From the NCBI GenBank assembly GCA_034007705.1, contig JAVEQK010000016.1:5893-69892 (forward strand): DNA of 64,000 bases. The letters are read 5' to 3'. The translations under genes were made by a program, and so were the position numbers. Under the pieces are notes generated by a model. That model saw only the letters and a list, made by a program, of their open reading frames with translations, ran no database searches and was not told where the DNA came from. This DNA comes from Desulfobulbaceae bacterium (GTDB lineage: Bacteria > Desulfobacterota > Desulfobulbia > Desulfobulbales > Desulfobulbaceae). This document shows, piece after piece, positions 18,781 to 41,209 of this stretch; within the stretch, counting starts at the first letter, position 1; the number at the start of each line of letters is the position of its first letter.

Positions 18781-20766
18781 ATGGGAATCGCCGCTGACAT
18801 AATCCTCATCGTGGTGGCCGCCCTGATCGGCGCCCTCATCGCCCAGAAGCTCAGGCAGCCCCTGATTCTCGGCTATATAGCCGCCGGCATTGTCATCGGT
18901 CCGCACAGCGGCGGCATCACCATCTCCGAGTTTCATGAAATTGAACTCCTGGCCGAGATCGGGGTGGCCCTGCTCCTCTTCGCCCTCGGGCTGGAATTTT
19001 CCCTGCGGGAACTCAAGCCGGTCTGGAAAATCGCCCTTATCGGCACCCCCATCCAGATTCTGTTGACCATGGCCTACGGCTATGGAATCGGCACGATGTT
19101 CGACTGGACCCCGATCCATGCCCTCTGGTTCGGCGCGCTCATCGCCTTGTCCAGCACGATGATCACCCTGAAGACACTCATGTCCCAGGGATGGATGGGC
19201 ACCCTGTCCAGCAGGGTGATGATCGGCATGCTGCTGGCCCAGGACCTGGCCGTGGTGCCGATGATGATCATCCTGCCGCAGCTCAGCGATCCGGCGGCCG
19301 GTCTGCCGCTGATCGGCATGGCGGTTGTCAAGTCGGTGGTTTTTCTGCTGTCGATGTTCTTTCTCGGCACCAGGATCCTGCCCCTGCTGCTCGGGTACAT
19401 TGCCCAGTGGAATTCACGGGAGCTCTTTATTCTTACCAATTTGGCCATAGGACTGGGCATCGGTTATGCCACGTATCTGTTCGGCCTCTCCTTCGCCTTT
19501 GGAGCCTTCATCGCCGGCATGGTCCTGAGCGAGTCCGATTACGGCCATCAGGCGCTGAGTGACATCATTCCCCTGCGGGACGTCTTCGGCCTGCTTTTTT
19601 TCACCTCGGTGGGCATGCTCCTGGACATCAACTTTCTGCTGGACAGTTGGAAGATGATTGTCATCCTGCTGCTGCTGGTCGCCCTGGGCAAGGGTGTTAT
19701 TTTCTCCCTCCTTGCCTGGCTGTTCCGGTACCGAAACATCATTCCCCTTGCCCTGGGTCTCGGCCTGTTCCAGGTCGGCGAGTTTTCCTTTGTCCTCGCC
19801 CGGGTGGGGCTGGAAACCAATTCCATCGATACCCGGATCTACTCCCTGATCCTGGCCACCTCCGTGATCAGCATGGTCATGACCCCGTTTGTGTCCGGCC
19901 TGGCCCCCCCGCTGTACCGGCTCAAACGCCATTTTTTCCAGCATGAACCGCTGCAGACCATCAATGTTCCCCAGAAAGGCCTGACCAATCATGTCGTCAT
20001 TGCCGGCGGAGGCAGGGTCGGCCAGCACATAGCCCAGGTCCTGCAGCAGCTGCATGTCCCCTTTGTCATCGTTGAACTCAATCACCAGAGGATGACCGAG
20101 TGCAAGGAGGCCGACTACCCCGTCATCTACGGCGACATGACGCAGCTGATCGTTCTTGATGCCGCGGAACTGGCCACGGCAAAGCAGCTGCTGATCACTC
20201 CGCCTTCGATTGTCGACGCCCGGGCCATTGTCCGCCACGCCCGGAAAATCAATCCAGGCCTCCAGATCGTGGCCAGGGCCGAAGGGGTGGAGCAAACCAG
20301 AACCTTGTATGAGGACGGCGTCTCCATGGTCGTTCTTCCTGAAATGGAAGCCGGATTGGAAATTGCCCGGCAGGCGCTGCTGGGTCTGCAGATCCCGGCC
20401 ACCCTGATCCAGGAATATACCGATATGGTCCGGCAGGAGATGTACGAACCCCTTTTCTCCTCCCGGTATGACTACCGTCTGATCACCCAGCTCAACAGCG
20501 CCAAGAACCTGCTGGAAATCTCCTGGGTGGAGATAGAGCCCGAAAGTCCGTTGAACGGGCAGGCCATAAAGGATGCGGGGATCCGCACCCGCACCGGGGC
20601 AACCATCGTCGGTATTATCCGCCACGGGATCTTCCGGCCCAACCCCGACCCGGAGCACACCTTTTCGCCCGGCGACCTTGTTGCCATTGTCGGCAGTCCC
20701 AGGGAGCGGGACCTGTTCAGGGAGATAATGCTGGGCGGGACCGGACCGACGGAGGGAACAGGTTAA
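18781..20766 (+). CDS. Monovalent cation:proton antiporter (CPA2/Kef type) with TrkA-N and TrkA-C (RCK) domains
   Basis: About 12 TM helices in the N-terminal part. The Rossmann segment [15 protein letters not shown] marks TrkA-N, and the C-terminal [11 protein letters not shown]...PGDLVAIVG marks TrkA-C. Confidence 0.85.
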
Positions 20767-22559
20767 AAGTAGTACCAGATCGTTTCGTAATCCTCCCCGT
20801 TCTCGCCGATCGCTTCCAGCCTGGCAAGGTAGTCAAGGATCGGTACGTCACGGCAGACATACGTTTTCATGGCGTGCGTTGAGATGTTTTTCTCCCACGG
20901 ATGAAATTCATACAATCTGCTGCCGTCCGGCAGAATCGATATAAGGTCCCGCAGACTGCTCGCCTTGAGGTAGTTCTTGCCCATGCCGGGCACATTGTAT
21001 ACGGCCTCGTCGGTTCTGGACAGGCCCGGCAGCAGCCGCGACTCCTCCCTTTGTTCCTGCAGGAGCCTGGCGATGGGAACCCGATAGGTTTCGGTCTCGT
21101 CTTTGCCCTTGGCGTTGAAGGTATAATAGGGATCGATCCCGACCTGGGTCAGCAGACGCCGCAGATACGCCGCTTCGAAGCGCCGCGAGACAAAAAAGGT
21201 ATACACCAGCTGATTGTACACCGGAATGCCCCGGGTCCTGAGCCGTTCCACGGCGGCGGCCAGGTCGGGATTCACCTCGTAGGAATGCTGAACATGGGTA
21301 ACAATCGACACCTGCCTCTTTGCCGGCTCCCTGTATTTCGCCAGGATGGAGACCAGTTCGTCGGTGAAGCGCATGGGCAGCGTCACCGGGGTTCTGGTGC
21401 CGATCCTGATCCGCTCCACCGACGGTATGGCCGCCACCAGGCCCAGGATCCTGTCCAGTTTCCGGTCGCCCATGGCCAGGGGGTCACCGCCGGTGATCAG
21501 TACCTCATGGATCGCCGGATGGTCACGAATCCAATCGACCGCCCTCTGAATCGCCTCGTCCGTGGCCATGGCCCCGGGCTGCATGGCGTCGTCAATTTCC
21601 CAGTTGCGCTGGCAATAGACGCAGATCTGGGGGCAGGTGTTGAACGGCTTGAAAATGCAGATCGAGGGGTACCGCCTTGTGACCAGGTCAACCGGGGAGG
21701 TCTCGGACTCCAGCATGAAATCCATGCACGCGCCCCTCTCTTTTGCCTCCAGCGTTTTCTGGACATAACTGCCCGGAGGGATCACCTGGGCCCGGATTGC
21801 CCGGTCGCGCTCCCGGGTCGAATCGTCATCCATCAGCGAAAGATAGAACGGCGTAATGCCGAACGGCAGCCTGTGCCTGCGGGCGTCGGCGATGGCCTGC
21901 TTTTCTTCTTTCGACAGGGTGAGCATTCTGCCGATCTTCCCGGCATCGCGCAGGATATTGCCAACCTGCCATTTCCAGTCCGACCAGTTTTCCTCCGTTC
22001 CCCCCAGTACTTCCAGGATCCGCTCCCGCCTTTCGGCCCGGCGGCGCACACTTTCCGGTGACAGCCCCGACATGCTCTTATCCAGCCGCTGCCTCACCTC
22101 GGCATACAGCTGATCCAGCTGCCGGGACCTCTCCCGGGCCGCCTCCCTGTCCTTGAGGGGGCTCGGCACCAGATGGTGCTCATAGAAGGCCTTGCCCGGG
22201 CCCCGCCCCTGCAGGCCGAGGAAAAGATAGATCAGGTCGGCGTAAAAAGCCGGGGCAAGGTCCGGCCGGGGAACACCGCGGGCAATATCCATGATGGCCC
22301 GGGCCACGGAAAACTTCGCCTTGTCCTCGCTGCGCCTGGTCATCATCCGGACGAGAACCTTGGCGCAGTCGCGAACGCGCATGATCGAGCCGGCGCTGAA
22401 GGCATCGTATTCATCAAAGGTCTCGAACATCATGTCGTGCGCCAGACGGGCGAGATTTGACCGCAGCTCGTCGACCGATTTGGCCTGACGGGCGATGGTG
22501 CAGATTTCCGGCAGTTTTGATCTGAAATAATCGGGGTTGAACTTGGCGGGATCCATCAT
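20763..22559 (-). CDS. KamA-family radical SAM aminomutase-like protein with an N-terminal extension of about 185 aa
   Basis: [10 protein letters not shown] (CxxxCxxC). [10 protein letters not shown] and [10 protein letters not shown] match the KamA N-terminus but sit at about aa 190-240. Its stop codon overlaps the antiporter stop codon (convergent, 20763-20766). Confidence 0.8.
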
Positions 22560-22962
22560 AATGCACTTTCTTCAAATAGGTATTGCGCCGCCATGAGGTG
22601 CGGCAATGAACCACAATGTCGCCGATGCAGTCGGCTTTTCTTTTCCTGTCACAATGTGGGAGGATACAAACGGAGAACAAACCATGCCGGTTTGAACAGA
22701 CCGACATACAGTTAACCATGGATAACCCACCGCGTCAATACCTGCAGCTCCGTGGAATGGCCGTACGACGACGGGCCAAATTGGAAATGCCCGAGGATTC
22801 AGAGCATGTGCCAGGAGGGGAAACAGTGCTCTGAACCGCCCACCCCTGCCGCCGTTTCCGCAGTTTCCCCGCGCCGCGTGATTCATTTCCCGCTACGGCA
22901 GCGGCGAGCGGCTTTTCTTTGCTGTCCGGGCTTGACCCGGCCGCGCAGTCAGCCAGCTTCTT

Positions 22963-22978
22963 GTTACCAAACGGTAAC
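22963..22978. promoter_or_regulatory. Perfect palindrome GTTACC-AAAC-GGTAAC (putative enhancer/UAS site 1)
   Basis: Read directly. It lies about 100 bp upstream of the sigma-54 promoter at 23062. Confidence 0.55.
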
Positions 22979-22993
22979 GTCCGGGGCCGGATT

Positions 22994-23009
22994 GTTCCCA
23001 TCAGGTAAC
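22994..23009. promoter_or_regulatory. Palindrome variant GTTCCC-ATCA-GGTAAC (putative UAS site 2)
   Basis: 11/12 half-site positions match site 1. It is offset 31 bp from site 1. Confidence 0.45.
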
Positions 23010-23061
23010 ACCCGCTGTTCTTCAACAGGGCTAATATCTTGTTTTCACAAACATTGCATAC

Positions 23062-23077
23062 TGGCACATGTCTTGCT
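23062..23077 (+). promoter_or_regulatory. Sigma-54 (-24/-12) promoter TGGCAC-ATGTC-TTGCT
   Basis: Exact match to the TGGCAC-N5-TTGCW consensus with correct GG/GC spacing. It faces the kinase operon. Confidence 0.7.
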
Positions 23078-23168
23078 TCGGCAGGATTGGCGACCCCATG
23101 GACGGCTCCCCGCAGGAAGGGGACGGATCGGTTCACCCCCCTGTCCCTGCCGGAAACCATACCGATTC

Positions 23169-23184
23169 GTTACCATACGGTAGC
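23169..23184. promoter_or_regulatory. Palindrome variant GTTACC-ATAC-GGTAGC (site 3), abutting a sigma-70-like promoter
   Basis: 11/12 half-site match. It ends 8 bp before the -35 element at 23192. Confidence 0.45.
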
Positions 23185-23191
23185 AAAAAAA

Positions 23192-23220
23192 TTGTTTCCC
23201 GGGAAAATCGAGGATATAAT
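23192..23220 (+). promoter_or_regulatory. Sigma-70-like promoter TTGTTT-N17-TATAAT
   Basis: Perfect -10 hexamer, 17-nt spacer and a weak -35. It lies about 95 bp upstream of the kinase start. Confidence 0.45.
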
Positions 23221-23314
23221 AGGAAAACGGCAGTTGAGCGTGAACCCTGTGCTTCGCGCCGCCGCTCCACGGCGCGAATGCCGAATTGCCCTGGCGAGGC
23301 GGTGAGAATACCCC

Positions 23315-24898
23315 GTGAATCTGACCATCAAGTTCATTGTTGCCATCAGCGCCGTCATCCTGCTGTCCTACGGTTTTCTGCTGTACCAGACCTCGCATCT
23401 GCAGAATGAACTGGTCATGGAACAGGCCCGGCAGCAGACCCGCATCCTCTATAAACAGATCATTCTGACCCGCCAGTGGATATCCGACCACCAGGGATTG
23501 TTCCTGATCAAGACCGAAAAGGTGCTGGAAAACCCCTACCTGCACGAGGCCTCCATTAAAGCCGATGACGGGACCATTTTCGTCAAGCGCAACCCCGCCA
23601 TGGTGACCAGGGAACTGTCCGAATATGCGGCCCGGACAGGATTCTGCTGGTTTCGCATCATCAGTCTGAAACCGGTCAATCCCGCCAACACCCCGGATGA
23701 TTTCGAGCGGGCGGCCATGCTGCGCTTTGAGCAGGGGGTCCGGGAAGTCGATGCCGTCACCAACGGACCGGCCGGGAGGGTTCAACGTTATATCGCCCCG
23801 CTCATCGTCCAGGAGTCCTGTCTCGGATGCCATGCCGAACACGGCTATTCCTTAGGCGACATCCGCGGCGCCCTGAGCATCAGCGTTCCCCTGTCCTGGG
23901 CCGACAGTGTAATCCGGAAAAACAACACCACCATTTTCAAATATGCCTTTTTCTCTGTTTTCGCGGTCGCCCTGGCCCTCATCTATCTGTTCAACAAACT
24001 GGTGGCCCGGCGGATCGACCGGCTGTCCCAGGCCATGGAGAAGTATCCCGAGCAGGGATACAACGTCGCCGACGACAAGCACCTGTACAAGGACGAAATC
24101 GGCCGGCTGATCAAGGGGTTCGGTGATCTCTGCGAACGGCTTGAACGGGCCCAGACCGAACTGGACAAAACGATGCAGCAGGCGTTCTATAACGAAAAAA
24201 TGGCCTCCCTGGGGCAACTGACCGCCGGCATCGCCCATGAAATCAACAATCCGCTCGGAGGGCTGCTCAACTGCGTCAAGACCATGCGGGAGGAGCCCGA
24301 CAACCTGGAACTGCACATGCGCTATCTGCCCCTGCTGGAAAAGGGACTCCGCCGCATCGAGCATATCATGCGCCAGCTCCTGAACTTCGGCAGAAAAGCA
24401 CCGTTGAACATGAGCAAGGTCGATATTGACGACATCGTCCGGGAATGCTGTGAACTGCTCGAATACCGGCTGAAAAACATCTCCCTGTCCCTGGACCTGC
24501 AGCTCCGGGAGCTCTATTGCATCGATGTGGAAGCCCTGCGCCAGATTATCGTCAACACCACCCTCAATGCAATCCAGGCCATGCCCGACGGCGGCAGCCT
24601 GACCGTCGCCACCGGGCGGCGGGGCATCCAGATCTTCATAGAGGTACGCGACACCGGGACGGGCATCGATCCGGCCCTCATGGACAAAATTTTCGATCCC
24701 TTCTTCACCACCAAGGAAGTGGGGGAGGGAACCGGCCTGGGACTGGCGGTCACCTATTCGCTCGTCAAGCAGATGCAAGGCAACATCGCGGTGGAGAGCG
24801 AACCGGGCAGAGGTTCGCTGTTCACGATCACGCTGCCGGCCACCCAGGACTGCGTCATTCTCCCGCACCGGTCCGAACCGGAACCAGACAAGGAATAA
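23315..24898 (+). CDS. Sensor histidine kinase with a periplasmic Tll0287-like (DUF3365) domain carrying a single CXXCH haem-c motif, plus HAMP, HisKA and HATPase domains
   Basis: GTG start. TM1 is IVAISAVILLSYGFLL. The periplasmic domain ends with QESCLGCHAEHGYSLGDIRGALSISVP, followed by TM2. H-box AHEINNPLGG. N, G1 and G2 boxes (DTGTGI, GTGLGLAV). Confidence 0.85.
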   Translation: MNLTIKFIVAISAVILLSYGFLLYQTSHLQNELVMEQARQQTRILYKQIILTRQWISDHQGLFLIKTEKVLENPYLHEASIKADDGTIFVKRNPAMVTRELSEYAARTGFCWFRIISLKPVNPANTPDDFERAAMLRFEQGVREVDAVTNGPAGRVQRYIAPLIVQESCLGCHAEHGYSLGDIRGALSISVPLSWADSVIRKNNTTIFKYAFFSVFAVALALIYLFNKLVARRIDRLSQAMEKYPEQGYNVADDKHLYKDEIGRLIKGFGDLCERLERAQTELDKTMQQAFYNEKMASLGQLTAGIAHEINNPLGGLLNCVKTMREEPDNLELHMRYLPLLEKGLRRIEHIMRQLLNFGRKAPLNMSKVDIDDIVRECCELLEYRLKNISLSLDLQLRELYCIDVEALRQIIVNTTLNAIQAMPDGGSLTVATGRRGIQIFIEVRDTGTGIDPALMDKIFDPFFTTKEVGEGTGLGLAVTYSLVKQMQGNIAVESEPGRGSLFTITLPATQDCVILPHRSEPEPDKE

Positions 24899-24901
24899 CT
24901 C

Positions 24902-26245
24902 ATGGCAAGAATACTGCTTGTTGAAGACGACGATATAATGAGGATTACCATCCAGGACCGGCTGGAAAGGCACGAACTGGATGTCGACGCGGTCGAGAAC
25001 GGCCTGAGGGCGATCGACCGCCTGAAAAAGAACAACTACCATCTGGTCATTTCCGATATCCGCATGCCGGGGATCAGCGGTCTGGAACTGCTGGAGACCG
25101 TCCGCCAGGAGGCCCCCTATACGGACATCATCATGATGACCGCCTACGGCAGCGTCGACGACGCGATCGGGTGCATGACCAAAGGGGCTGCCGACTACAT
25201 CCTCAAACCCTTCAACATGGACGACCTCATCATCCGGGTCAGCAGAATCCTGGAAATGCAGACGATGAAAGCCCGCTTTTCATCCCTGCAGGAGAGCTGC
25301 CGCGAGATGCAGAAGGACATGATCGGCGACAGCCGGGCCATGCAGATGGTCCACGACCTCATCAACCAGGTGGCGCCGACCGATTCCACCATCCTCATCA
25401 CGGGCGAATCGGGAACAGGCAAGGAGCTGGCGGCGGCCGGCATTCACAGGAAAAGCAGAAGGGCCGACAAGCCGTTTGTCCGCATCAACTGCGCCGCCAT
25501 CCCCGAAGGGTTGATGGAATCGGAACTGTTCGGCCACGAAAAAGGGGCCTTTACCGGGGCGCACGCCCGCAAACCCGGCAAATTCGAACTGGCTGACGGC
25601 GGCACCATGCTGCTGGATGAAATCGGCGAACTGCCGCTGCCCCTGCAGGCGAAGCTTCTCAGGGTCCTCCAGGAAAGTTCGTATGAACGGGTCGGCGGCA
25701 CCGGCACGGTCCGCGTCGATGTCCGCATCCTCTGCGCCACCGCCAAGAACCTGGAAGAGGAAGTGCGGCGGGGAAATTTCCGCCAGGACCTGTATTACCG
25801 GCTCAACGTCATTCCCCTTGTCATGCCGCCGCTGCGGGACCGGAAAGAGGACATCCCGGCCCTGACCAACCATTTTCTGCATGAATTCAGCATCAAGCGC
25901 GGGATTGCCCTGGGAATACGCCAGGACGCCATGCAGCTCCTGATCGACTACGCCTATCCCGGCAATGTCCGGGAACTGCGCAATATCATTGAACGGGCCT
26001 CGGTCCTGGCCCCGGAGGCGGTCATTACCGTCAAAGACCTGCCTGCCGATCTGTCTCCTGCCGGAAAATTCGAGGCACCGGAAACCCACTGCACCCTTGC
26101 CGAGGCCCTTGCCCGGGCTGAAAAAGAGCTGGTGCTGAAAGCGCTGGCCAGGGTGCAGGGCCGAAGAGCCGAAGCAGCCGATCTGCTCGGCATCAGCAGA
26201 AAAAACCTGTGGGAAAAAATGAAGCTGCACGGCATTGCGCTCTGA
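24902..26245 (+). CDS. Sigma-54-dependent response regulator (NtrC family enhancer-binding protein)
   Basis: Receiver domain (DIRMPGISG), AAA+ Walker A GESGTGKE, ESELFGHEKGAFTGA (GAFTGA loop) and a C-terminal Fis-type HTH (AADLLGISRKNLWEKMK). Confidence 0.9.
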   Translation: MARILLVEDDDIMRITIQDRLERHELDVDAVENGLRAIDRLKKNNYHLVISDIRMPGISGLELLETVRQEAPYTDIIMMTAYGSVDDAIGCMTKGAADYILKPFNMDDLIIRVSRILEMQTMKARFSSLQESCREMQKDMIGDSRAMQMVHDLINQVAPTDSTILITGESGTGKELAAAGIHRKSRRADKPFVRINCAAIPEGLMESELFGHEKGAFTGAHARKPGKFELADGGTMLLDEIGELPLPLQAKLLRVLQESSYERVGGTGTVRVDVRILCATAKNLEEEVRRGNFRQDLYYRLNVIPLVMPPLRDRKEDIPALTNHFLHEFSIKRGIALGIRQDAMQLLIDYAYPGNVRELRNIIERASVLAPEAVITVKDLPADLSPAGKFEAPETHCTLAEALARAEKELVLKALARVQGRRAEAADLLGISRKNLWEKMKLHGIAL

Positions 26246-26294
26246 GGCCGCTGCCGGGCATTTATTTTCCAACTTTACATGGGGAGGAGAAATC

Positions 26295-27593
26295 ATGCGC
26301 ATGAAATTGATGGTCCTGGGAATGGCCGCGGCAATCCTCGGGTTTGCCGGCACGGCTGCGGCAGCCGATCCCTGCGTTGACTGCCACAACACGATTTCAC
26401 CCGGTCAGGTCCGGGACTGGCAGGTCAGCAAACATTCCGAAAATGATGTGACCTGCTCCACCTGTCACGGCGACCTCCACACAAAGGCGGAAGACGCCAT
26501 GCTGGCGGAGCTGCCCGATGAAAAAGTGTGTGCCGGATGCCATGAAGAACAGTTCAATCAGTTTGGCCGCGGCAAACACAACTTCGGCTGGACATCCCTG
26601 AATGCGATTCCGGCAACCCACTTCGCCCCTGATGAGCTCATCGAGGGCGGCAGGGGGTGCGGCGGGTGCCATAACATGGGCATCAAGACCGAAGAACAGA
26701 AAAAGGAGCTCCGCGACAAGGGGTACCGCTACCAGAGCAACTCGTGCGACGAGTGCCACACCCGGCACGCCTTTTCCAAGAAAGAAGCCCTGAATCCCAG
26801 GGCCTGCCAGCAGTGCCACATGGGCTACGACCATCCGCAGTGGGAAATGTGGTCCAGCTCCAAGCACGGGGCCCGGTATTACATCCGGAAGGAAGGGGAC
26901 CTGCCGGCTGAGGCGGCCGGCCCGAGCTGCCAGAACTGCCATATGCCGGACGGCGATCATGAAAACCGGACGGCCTGGGGCTTTCTCGGCGTACGGCTGC
27001 CCCTGCCCGAGGACAAGCAGGCCGCGGACGACCGGGTGACCATTCTCAAGGCCCTCGGGGTCCTGAATCCCGAGACCGGCGAGCCCACCCCGATCCTCGA
27101 TGCGGTCAAGGCCGTGGACATGGTCCGGCTGGATCAGGAATCCTGGGAAAAGGAACGAAGCAAGATGATCAAGACCTGCACCGGCTGCCACTCGGAAAAA
27201 TACGCCCGCGAGCAGCTGGCCATGGGCGACGCCATCCTGCAGAAGTCCGACCGGCTGATGGCCGACGCCATTGAAACCGTCGCCGCCCTCTACCGGGAGG
27301 GCATCATTGCAAAACCGGAAGGATACCCCTTCAACTATCCGTTCCTGCTGGCCTTCATGCACACCAACGGCGCCAACTGGAATGAAAAGCTGGACGACCT
27401 GTCCTTTATCGACCAGGTCCTGGTGCAGATGTACATGAAGCACCGTATGCGCGCCTACCAGGCCTTTTTCCACGTCAATCCGGATTACGCCTACTGGTAC
27501 GGCTGGAATGAAATGACCAAGGATCTCGGAGAAATCAAGGAGCTGGCGAGGACCATGCGGGCGACGCACGCACCGCAGGATAAACCCCAATAA
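26295..27593 (+). CDS. Octahaem c-type cytochrome, hydroxylamine oxidoreductase (HAO) family, exported (paralogue 1)
   Basis: Eight CXXCH motifs (CVDCH, CSTCH, CAGCH, CGGCH, CDECH, CQQCH, CQNCH, CTGCH). HAO-type core CHTRHAFS...CQQCHMGYDHPQWEMWSSSKHG and C-terminal NPDYAYWYGW. Sec signal MRMKLMVLGMAAAILGFAGTAAAA. RBS GGAGGAG. The track ORF starts upstream at 26235. Confidence 0.85.
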   Translation: MRMKLMVLGMAAAILGFAGTAAAADPCVDCHNTISPGQVRDWQVSKHSENDVTCSTCHGDLHTKAEDAMLAELPDEKVCAGCHEEQFNQFGRGKHNFGWTSLNAIPATHFAPDELIEGGRGCGGCHNMGIKTEEQKKELRDKGYRYQSNSCDECHTRHAFSKKEALNPRACQQCHMGYDHPQWEMWSSSKHGARYYIRKEGDLPAEAAGPSCQNCHMPDGDHENRTAWGFLGVRLPLPEDKQAADDRVTILKALGVLNPETGEPTPILDAVKAVDMVRLDQESWEKERSKMIKTCTGCHSEKYAREQLAMGDAILQKSDRLMADAIETVAALYREGIIAKPEGYPFNYPFLLAFMHTNGANWNEKLDDLSFIDQVLVQMYMKHRMRAYQAFFHVNPDYAYWYGWNEMTKDLGEIKELARTMRATHAPQDKPQ

Positions 27594-27659
27594 AGAACAG
27601 GCCTGGAAACCGGGCGGGTTCGGCCGGCGATCATTCTGACCGACTCACCTGCCCTGCAA

Positions 27660-27685
27660 GGGGACCCATTGCGGGTCCCCTTTTT
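27660..27685 (+). terminator. Intrinsic terminator after the octahaem gene
   Basis: GGGGACCC-ATTGC-GGGTCCCC followed by TTTTT. Confidence 0.75.
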
Positions 27686-41005: not shown

Positions 41006-41021
41006 GATACCGTACGGTAAC
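41006..41021. promoter_or_regulatory. Palindrome GATACC-GTAC-GGTAAC (same family as 22963; putative UAS)
   Basis: 11/12 half-site match to GTTACC/GGTAAC. It lies about 190 bp upstream of the nap sigma-54 promoter. Confidence 0.45.
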
Positions 41022-41038
41022 AAACCCCCGGCAATTAT

Positions 41039-41054
41039 ATTACCCATCCGTAAC
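41039..41054. promoter_or_regulatory. Palindrome variant ATTACC-CATC-CGTAAC (putative UAS)
   Basis: 10/12 half-site match. It is offset 33 bp from the previous site. Confidence 0.35.
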
Positions 41055-41193: not shown

Positions 41194-41209
41194 TGGCACT
41201 GTTGTTGCT
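41194..41209 (+). promoter_or_regulatory. Sigma-54 (-24/-12) promoter TGGCAC-TGTTG-TTGCT upstream of napF
   Basis: Exact match to TGGCAC-N5-TTGCW, about 80 bp before the napF ATG. Confidence 0.7.

Follow-up and report, generated by a model that had tools for sequence, protein, structure and literature searches.

The region described here lies in a stretch of 64,000 nucleotides from a Desulfobulbaceae bacterium (assembly GCA_034007705.1, contig JAVEQK010000016.1, positions 5,893 to 69,892 of the forward strand), hereafter called the window, and it precedes an operon for a sensor histidine kinase, an NtrC-type response regulator and an octahaem cytochrome. Direct reading of the sequence places all of the elements listed below within a 755-bp intergenic gap at 22560-23314, at the coordinates and with the gap length that a preliminary description of the same DNA had given. 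The gap is flanked by a divergent radical-SAM gene (20763-22559, minus strand) and by the operon on the plus strand. The operon's first gene (23315-24898, plus strand) encodes the kinase, in which two membrane spans enclose a Tll0287-like, periplasmic domain bearing a single CLGCH haem-c motif, and HisKA and HATPase domains come after these. The second (24902-26245, plus strand) encodes the enhancer-binding response regulator, and the last (26235-27593, plus strand) an octahaem c-type cytochrome with eight CxxCH motifs. An intrinsic-terminator-like hairpin with a T-run marks the operon end at 27658-27682 on the plus strand.

The regulator has the receiver, AAA+ and HTH_8 domains of a sigma-54 activator (Sigma54_activat, E = 5e-72; HTH_8, E = 9e-11), with a GAFTGA motif beginning at residue 215, so that the operon does encode such an activator, as first described; it is presumed to bind the palindromes that distinguish the region upstream. 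Two of these palindromes, 16 bases long, of the form GTTACC-N4-GGTAAC and given here without a strand, stand furthest from the operon. The distal copy (GTTACCAAACGGTAAC, 22963-22978) is perfect and is kept in the related loci L001, L002 and L009. The proximal copy (GTTCCCATCAGGTAAC, 22994-23009, one mismatch) starts 31 bp past the distal site and 68 bp ahead of the -24 box of a putative sigma-54 promoter. This promoter (TGGCACatgtcTTGCT, 23062-23077, plus strand; GG at 23063-4, GC at 23075-6) reads TGGCAC-N5-TTGCT, an exact match to TGGCAC-N5-TTGCW, and has a predicted start at about 23088. The genome also carries rpoN (TIGR02395, 456 bits, above cut-off, at positions 64546-65952 of contig C70), and the consensus assignment made in the preliminary description is upheld. 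Relative to the predicted start, the paired dyads are centred at about -117 and -86, which is inside the range of approximately 80-150 bp upstream that is usual for enhancer-dependent promoters.

A third, single operator (GTTACCATACGGTAGC, 23169-23184) is located further downstream, and every close orthologous locus has it at the corresponding position. Seven bp past it is a -35-like hexamer, TTGTTT (23192-23197, plus strand), and 17 bp past that a -10 hexamer, TATAAT (23215-23220, plus strand), with a predicted start at about 23227 and hence an 88-nucleotide leader. Relative to this predicted sigma-70 start the third operator is centred at about -50.5, and relative to that of the sigma-54 promoter at about +88. 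The region is a genuine conserved control region, as the comparisons below indicate.

The frequency and arrangement of the palindrome were compared with chance expectation. Six matches at two mismatches or fewer were found in the window against 0.70 expected, a number reached in none of 100 shuffles. A genome-wide count, which had been proposed as a check on the motif, gave a frequency beyond chance: the 3.2-Mb genome has eight GTTACC-N4-GGTAAC sites at one mismatch or fewer, compared with 0-3 in six third-order-Markov genomes, and six of the eight fall in three intergenic regions, as pairs 31-33 bp apart. Pairs spaced by 25-40 bp numbered three in the genome and none in the six simulated genomes. 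Every pair (3/3) has a -24/-12 box on the same strand 66-155 bp downstream, in a genome with 43 sigma-54 boxes by a loose definition and 19 by a strict one. The window holds two exact TGGCAC-N5-TTGCW boxes, each downstream of a palindrome pair. Sites with exactly two mismatches occur genome-wide at chance level (37, versus 40-55 in the simulated genomes), which indicates that the signal resides in the good sites and their arrangement and not in the raw count. The same figure could be cited for the view that the motifs are functionless chance matches, but this view can hardly be maintained, as the sites cluster, form pairs, accompany sigma-54 boxes and are conserved across genera to an extent far beyond chance.

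The genes that follow the other paired sites point to the role of the system, which the preliminary description had left unstated. A second pair at 41006-41054 (GATACCGTACGGTAAC and ATTACCCATCCGTAAC, copies at 41006 and 41039, 33 bp apart) is followed by a predicted sigma-54 promoter (TGGCACtgttgTTGCT, 41194-41209, plus strand) ahead of napF-napA-napG-napH, and a third pair with its sigma-54 cassette was found on contig C38 ahead of nrfH-nrfA. The three cassettes thus precede the regulator's own operon, napFAGH and nrfHA. Given cassettes ahead of both nap and nrfHA, the system is, as predicted from its sites, a nitrate/nitrite-ammonification regulon controlling the nap and nrfHA genes.

To what extent the palindrome follows the regulator was surveyed in 61 sampled genomes of the family, searched for NrfA and for an orthologue of the kinase; these genomes are related and thus not independent. 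All of the 25 orthologous loci that could be evaluated, representing about 11 genera, have the palindrome upstream of the kinase gene. For nrfHA, the comparison covered NrfA-positive genomes with enough upstream sequence. Palindromes were present ahead of nrfHA in each of the seven that are kinase-positive (G000, G002, G018, G027, G021, G050 and G057), mostly as pairs with a sigma-54 box 66-70 bp further on, and in several genera. None was found ahead of nrfHA, even at two mismatches, in the eight kinase-less genomes (G001, G006, G017, G019, G028, G036, G043 and G056). Both states, kinase with palindromes and neither, occur within one genus. This co-occurrence is the pattern expected if the adjacent regulator binds the palindrome, and GTTACC-N4-GGTAAC is very probably, by this comparison, the operator of the regulator encoded at 24902-26245.

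The palindromes might instead be bound by another factor, either a different enhancer-binding protein, of which the genome has approximately 24, or an unrelated dimeric regulator. The richness of the genome in such proteins would favour this, as would the presence of similar GTTAC-N6-GTAAC half-sites clustered near another enhancer-binding protein gene on contig C1. However, wherever an orthologous locus could be evaluated, the kinase-regulator operon comes with the palindrome, regardless of which genes adjoin it, and it is exactly in the kinase-less genomes that nrfHA promoters are without the palindrome. Binding by another factor is accordingly considered very improbable.

Several further observations were made on the distribution of these sites. 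The cluster on contig C1 of G000, outside the window, comprises three GTTAC-N6-GTAAC sites within 5 kb (GTTACCTGAACGTAAC, GTTACTTTCCCGTAAC and GTTACTTTTACGTAAC, at 66935, 67106 and 71820) and adjoins the gene of another enhancer-binding protein (AAA+ domain at C1:67584-68087, minus strand). No sigma-54 box was found within 400 bp of them, and they may represent the operator of a different but related regulator. Seventeen genomes have the kinase, with NrfA not found (G003, G004, G005, G010, G012, G014, G016, G025, G030, G032, G033, G040, G042, G045, G047, G052 and G059), and palindromes precede the kinase in all of these that could be checked. The occurrence of kinase and palindromes in genomes without detected NrfA indicates that the system is more widespread than nrfHA and must act mainly on something else there, candidates being nap and the octahaem cytochrome of the same operon. 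Downstream of the regulator gene, towards nap, a search of loci L004-L008 and L012 found only one single site, in L006.

The third operator and its neighbouring hexamers form a unit that has been retained with little change. The order operator, 7 bp, TTGTnn, 17 bp, TATAAT is kept in 11 of the 13 close orthologous loci; L001 has two extra A's in the spacer. In an ungapped alignment anchored on the operator, the half-sites had a column identity of 0.99, the -35 one of 0.85 and the -10 one of 0.94, compared with 0.44-0.45 in the flanks and 0.39-0.64 in the spacers, and this conservation of operator and hexamers appears as a clear phylogenetic footprint. The distance from operator to -10 is fixed at 46 bp, whereas the sigma-54 box lies at a variable distance from the third site (window, 107 bp; L001, 112 bp; L002, 70 bp; L009, 238 bp), which indicates that the third site is coupled to the sigma-70 promoter and not to the sigma-54 promoter. 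The unit is also retained in L007, a locus without any sigma-54 box, in which a preceding co-directional gene stops 20 bp upstream of the unit. The suggestion that a basal sigma-70 promoter has its -35 flanked by the same operator is thus borne out, as far as conservation can indicate, by the 11 close loci.

The same arrangement bears on a different role for the third palindrome, that of a downstream enhancer acting on the sigma-54 promoter through DNA looping and completing a hexamer, with TTGTTT-17-TATAAT being non-functional. Three dimers would make one hexamer, NtrC sites can act from downstream, and one nrfHA promoter, in L084, has three sites in 33-bp register. Nevertheless, the single site and both hexamers are kept in six loci whose nearest sigma-54 box is upstream of nrfH, as they are in L007 where the box does not exist; the distance to the box ranges over 70-238 bp with that to TATAAT constant; and the -35 and -10 columns are themselves conserved. 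An enhancer function of this kind therefore seems most unlikely.

The L084 promoter (G002, contig C98) has its three palindromes at -951, -918 and -885 from nrfA, in exact 33-bp register before the sigma-54 box, which would suffice for three dimers or one hexamer. In L005 (3892-3933), and also in L008, the operator lies within a 42-nucleotide perfect inverted repeat with 19-bp arms (AAACAACCTTTATGTTACC...GGTAACATAAAGGTTGTTT), of which the right arm takes in the -35 hexamer TTGTTT. Loci of other genera, L116-L124 among them, carry 40-120 bp ahead of the kinase start a pair whose distal copy consistently has a right half of GGTATC and not GGTAAC, followed by ATTTT. This conserved departure hints at a second, overlapping signal; no convincing promoter was found around these distal copies, and TATCAT as a -10 inside the distal palindrome was dropped as a candidate, no -35 having been found.

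The complete layout, that is, the pair, the sigma-54 box, the single site and the sigma-70-like promoter, recurs in L001, L002 and L009, and alignment with L002 found the motifs conserved and the DNA between them diverged. A different gene order was observed in six relatives (L004, L005, L006, L008, L011 and L012), where nrfH and nrfA are followed by the operator with its sigma-70 promoter, the kinase and the regulator. Ahead of nrfH, loci L005, L006, L011 and L012 have the pair and, after 66 bp, the sigma-54 box; L008 has the sigma-54 box in the 97 bp of upstream sequence examined, and the corresponding stretch of L004 lay outside the check. A terminator-like hairpin, read by eye, follows nrfA in L005. 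The window, L001, L002 and L009 have no nrfHA upstream, and their pair and sigma-54 box stand directly ahead of the operator-flanked sigma-70 promoter. The compound region therefore looks like the family's pairing of an inducible promoter upstream and a basal promoter at the regulator, without nrfHA in between. In the present lineage nrfHA lies elsewhere (on contig C38), and, going by gene order, the sigma-54 module would stand directly upstream of what had been an internal promoter.

Sequence and comparison together show the operator, consensus elements for both promoters, the conservation of these features and the regulon, and the recurrence of the layout in three relatives supports the positive-autoregulation, dual-promoter reading given in the preliminary description. 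The best reading of the region is positive autoregulation from an enhancer-dependent promoter together with a separate, operator-flanked sigma-70 promoter. This combination of an operator, its regulon and two tandem promoters for the regulator's own operon, taken together with the leaning towards repression at the third site set out below, is the explanation preferred here, with a probability of roughly 0.62.

Conservation of the sigma-70-type promoter suggests that transcription from about 23227 would supply a basal level of kinase and regulator. By analogy with other NtrC-class systems, a signal would then cause the kinase to phosphorylate the regulator, whose dimers would fill the pair at 22963 and 22994, form an ATPase ring and convert the sigma-54 closed complex at TGGCAC-N5-TTGCT to its open state, with a start at about 23088. 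Passing over the third site and the sigma-70 promoter, transcription would continue into the genes for kinase, regulator and octahaem cytochrome, giving positive feedback in parallel with the induction of nap and nrfHA. The least certain step is the last, in which the single third site would let the regulator modulate the basal promoter. If this were by repression, as is leaned to here, the zone of the UP element and of the C-terminal domain of the RNA polymerase alpha subunit (alpha-CTD) would be occupied and read-through possibly hindered, the operon would shift from the sigma-70 to the sigma-54 promoter, and the feedback would be capped.

That the third site represses the sigma-70 promoter is judged somewhat probable. 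NtrC-class proteins of the GAFTGA type classically repress sigma-70 promoters (glnAp1, glnLp, pspF and xylR Pr). Furthermore, the more distant genera carry the pair only 40-90 bp from the kinase start codon, where there would be no room for a sigma-54 promoter and where the pair probably overlies the core promoter. The opposite direction, activation, is rather unlikely, with other outcomes taking the remainder. Here the regulator at about -51 would recruit or stabilise sigma-70 RNA polymerase through a class-I-like contact with alpha-CTD or with sigma region 4, and autoregulation would be positive at both promoters. Such a role would suit an operator that never overlaps the -35, a 7-bp spacing that is kept although the spacer sequence diverges, and an imperfect -35 (TTGTnn, three to four of six positions), and some NtrC-family proteins do act at sigma-70 promoters (Rhodobacter capsulatus NtrC, TyrR and FleQ). 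However, a promoter with a perfect TATAAT and a spacer of optimal length (17 bp) should work unaided, and neither the classical behaviour of GAFTGA-bearing proteins nor the apparent overlap of sites with the core promoter in other genera is in its favour. It may also be proposed, tentatively and with slightly more doubt, that one GAFTGA regulator serves two sigma factors, sigma-54 through paired distal sites and sigma-70 by direct activation through a single dyad 7 bp from the -35. The rigid operator-promoter module would then be one that a clade of Desulfobulbaceae has retained regardless of whether nrfA or a sigma-54 promoter precedes it.

Some points weigh against the preferred reading of an autoregulated operon with tandem promoters. 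The choice of this regulator from among approximately 24 enhancer-binding proteins draws on co-localisation and on co-occurrence among related, non-independent genomes. As a -35, TTGTTT is weak, matching TTGACA at three of six positions, and a consensus sigma-70 scan made no call; the limited match explains why the scan missed the promoter, support for which was drawn from conservation instead. A position near -51, clear of the -35, is no less typical for the site of an activator than for that of a repressor, and so strict a spacing of 7 bp hints that RNA polymerase is contacted in a face-specific way, which would fit activation equally. Finally, no sequence remnant of nrfHA was detected in the region by blastn with 9-base words, which found only the palindromes, so that the proposed origin is taken from gene order alone.

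The leader and the remainder of the gap contribute less to this picture. A 9-bp stem (TTCGCGCCG at 23253-23261 and CGGCGCGAA at 23270-23278, plus strand, 8-nucleotide loop) had been pointed out in the leader and is present in the sequence, but a function for it is not supported: the fold of the leader is no more stable than those of shuffled controls (z = -0.57), and L001, the closest relative, has a degraded stem and L002 none. No T-run follows the hairpin, and an attenuator or terminator at this position was rejected on these grounds. The hairpin is not counted as part of the predicted control device. A different, conserved leader motif, TTAACCYGTWYCAGGTGRAT, was noted in the last 40 or so nucleotides before the kinase start codon in L005, L006, L007, L008 and L012. 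It is absent from the window and from L001, holds an inverted repeat, ACCTG...CAGGT, overlapping the likely Shine-Dalgarno sequence (AGGTGG), and may form a hairpin that sequesters the ribosome-binding site.

An Rfam scan of the window found no known RNA family in the 755-bp gap, and only a tRNA elsewhere. A small RNA or small open reading frame between the sigma-54 box and the third palindrome was also considered and rejected, as the length of this interval varies among loci and has 2-nucleotide indels relative to L001. The upstream half of the gap (22560-22960, especially 22700-22740) is 83% identical to L001, approximately the level of the flanking genes, and its conserved block includes a weak palindrome, GTTAACCATGGATAAC, at 22711. 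A 1-nucleotide indel relative to L001 speaks against a conserved open reading frame there, the Rfam scan of this part was empty, and the divergent radical-SAM gene may have its promoter or leader here.

The circuit is ordinary in kind and leaves the general picture of sigma-54 regulation unchanged; its operator is new, and it is a new example of a textbook type of circuit. No regulator of nitrate/nitrite ammonification genes in Desulfobulbaceae was found in the literature that could be searched. This study provides a testable operator and regulon (nap, nrfHA and the kinase-regulator-octahaem cytochrome operon) for that process in the family, and the motif is usable for annotating such regulons in metagenome-assembled genomes. 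It also offers an evolutionary comparison in which the same feedback logic is built either by gene order or by side-by-side promoters. The constant 7-bp link between operator and -35 would, once it had been measured in which direction control runs, show how enhancer-binding proteins communicate with sigma-70 polymerase.

The role of the system matches that of NrfS-NrfR (DVU0622/DVU0621) in Desulfovibrio vulgaris and D. desulfuricans (PMC5701242; PMC6456213; PMC4641369), which likewise has sites for a sigma-54 response regulator ahead of nrfHA (and nap); here, pairs with -24/-12 boxes precede both operons. The Desulfovibrio operator is GTCATCTTTTTCTGAC-like (GTCAnnTTTTTCTGAC type) with sites 20 bp apart (PMC4641369), in contrast to the local GTTACC-N4-GGTAAC with sites 31-33 bp apart. 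No description of autoregulatory sites at the Desulfovibrio regulator's own promoter was found in the texts that could be read. Among the other published motifs of D. vulgaris enhancer-binding proteins that were compared, none matches the local palindrome, and a literature search for the local motif returned nothing relevant. The DNA-binding helices are approximately 29% identical to those of DVU0621, in a hand alignment of 41 residues limited to the 42-residue HTH, and the recognition helix differs.

In the enteric glnALG operon, NtrC (NR-I) dyads serve glnAp1 (sigma-70), glnAp2 (sigma-54) and glnLp. The present region resembles it in having an NtrC-class regulator with paired upstream dyads at a sigma-54 promoter, the same operator family at a sigma-70 promoter of the operon encoding the regulator itself, and, as predicted from sequence, a basal and an inducible promoter with autoregulation. 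The likeness to glnAp1/p2 drawn in the preliminary description thus holds for the logic but neither for the promoter order nor for an overlap of the operator with the sigma-70 core promoter. The sigma-54 box (23062) lies upstream of the sigma-70-like hexamers (23192-23220), the reverse of the enteric order; each promoter has separate sites, the enhancer pair being more than 180 bp upstream of the -35; and the sigma-70 operator ends 7 bp before the -35 without overlapping the core promoter. The operator sequence is also different, and the function is nitrate/nitrite respiration and not nitrogen assimilation. At pspF and at xylR Pr, the enhancer sites of PspF and XylR double as operators of the sigma-70 promoter of the activator's own gene. 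The presence of an activator's operator at the sigma-70 promoter of its own gene is shared with these cases of negative autoregulation. Unlike them, where shared sites serve a divergent sigma-54 promoter and overlap the regulator promoter, the region described here has tandem promoters on one strand and a single site dedicated to the second of them.

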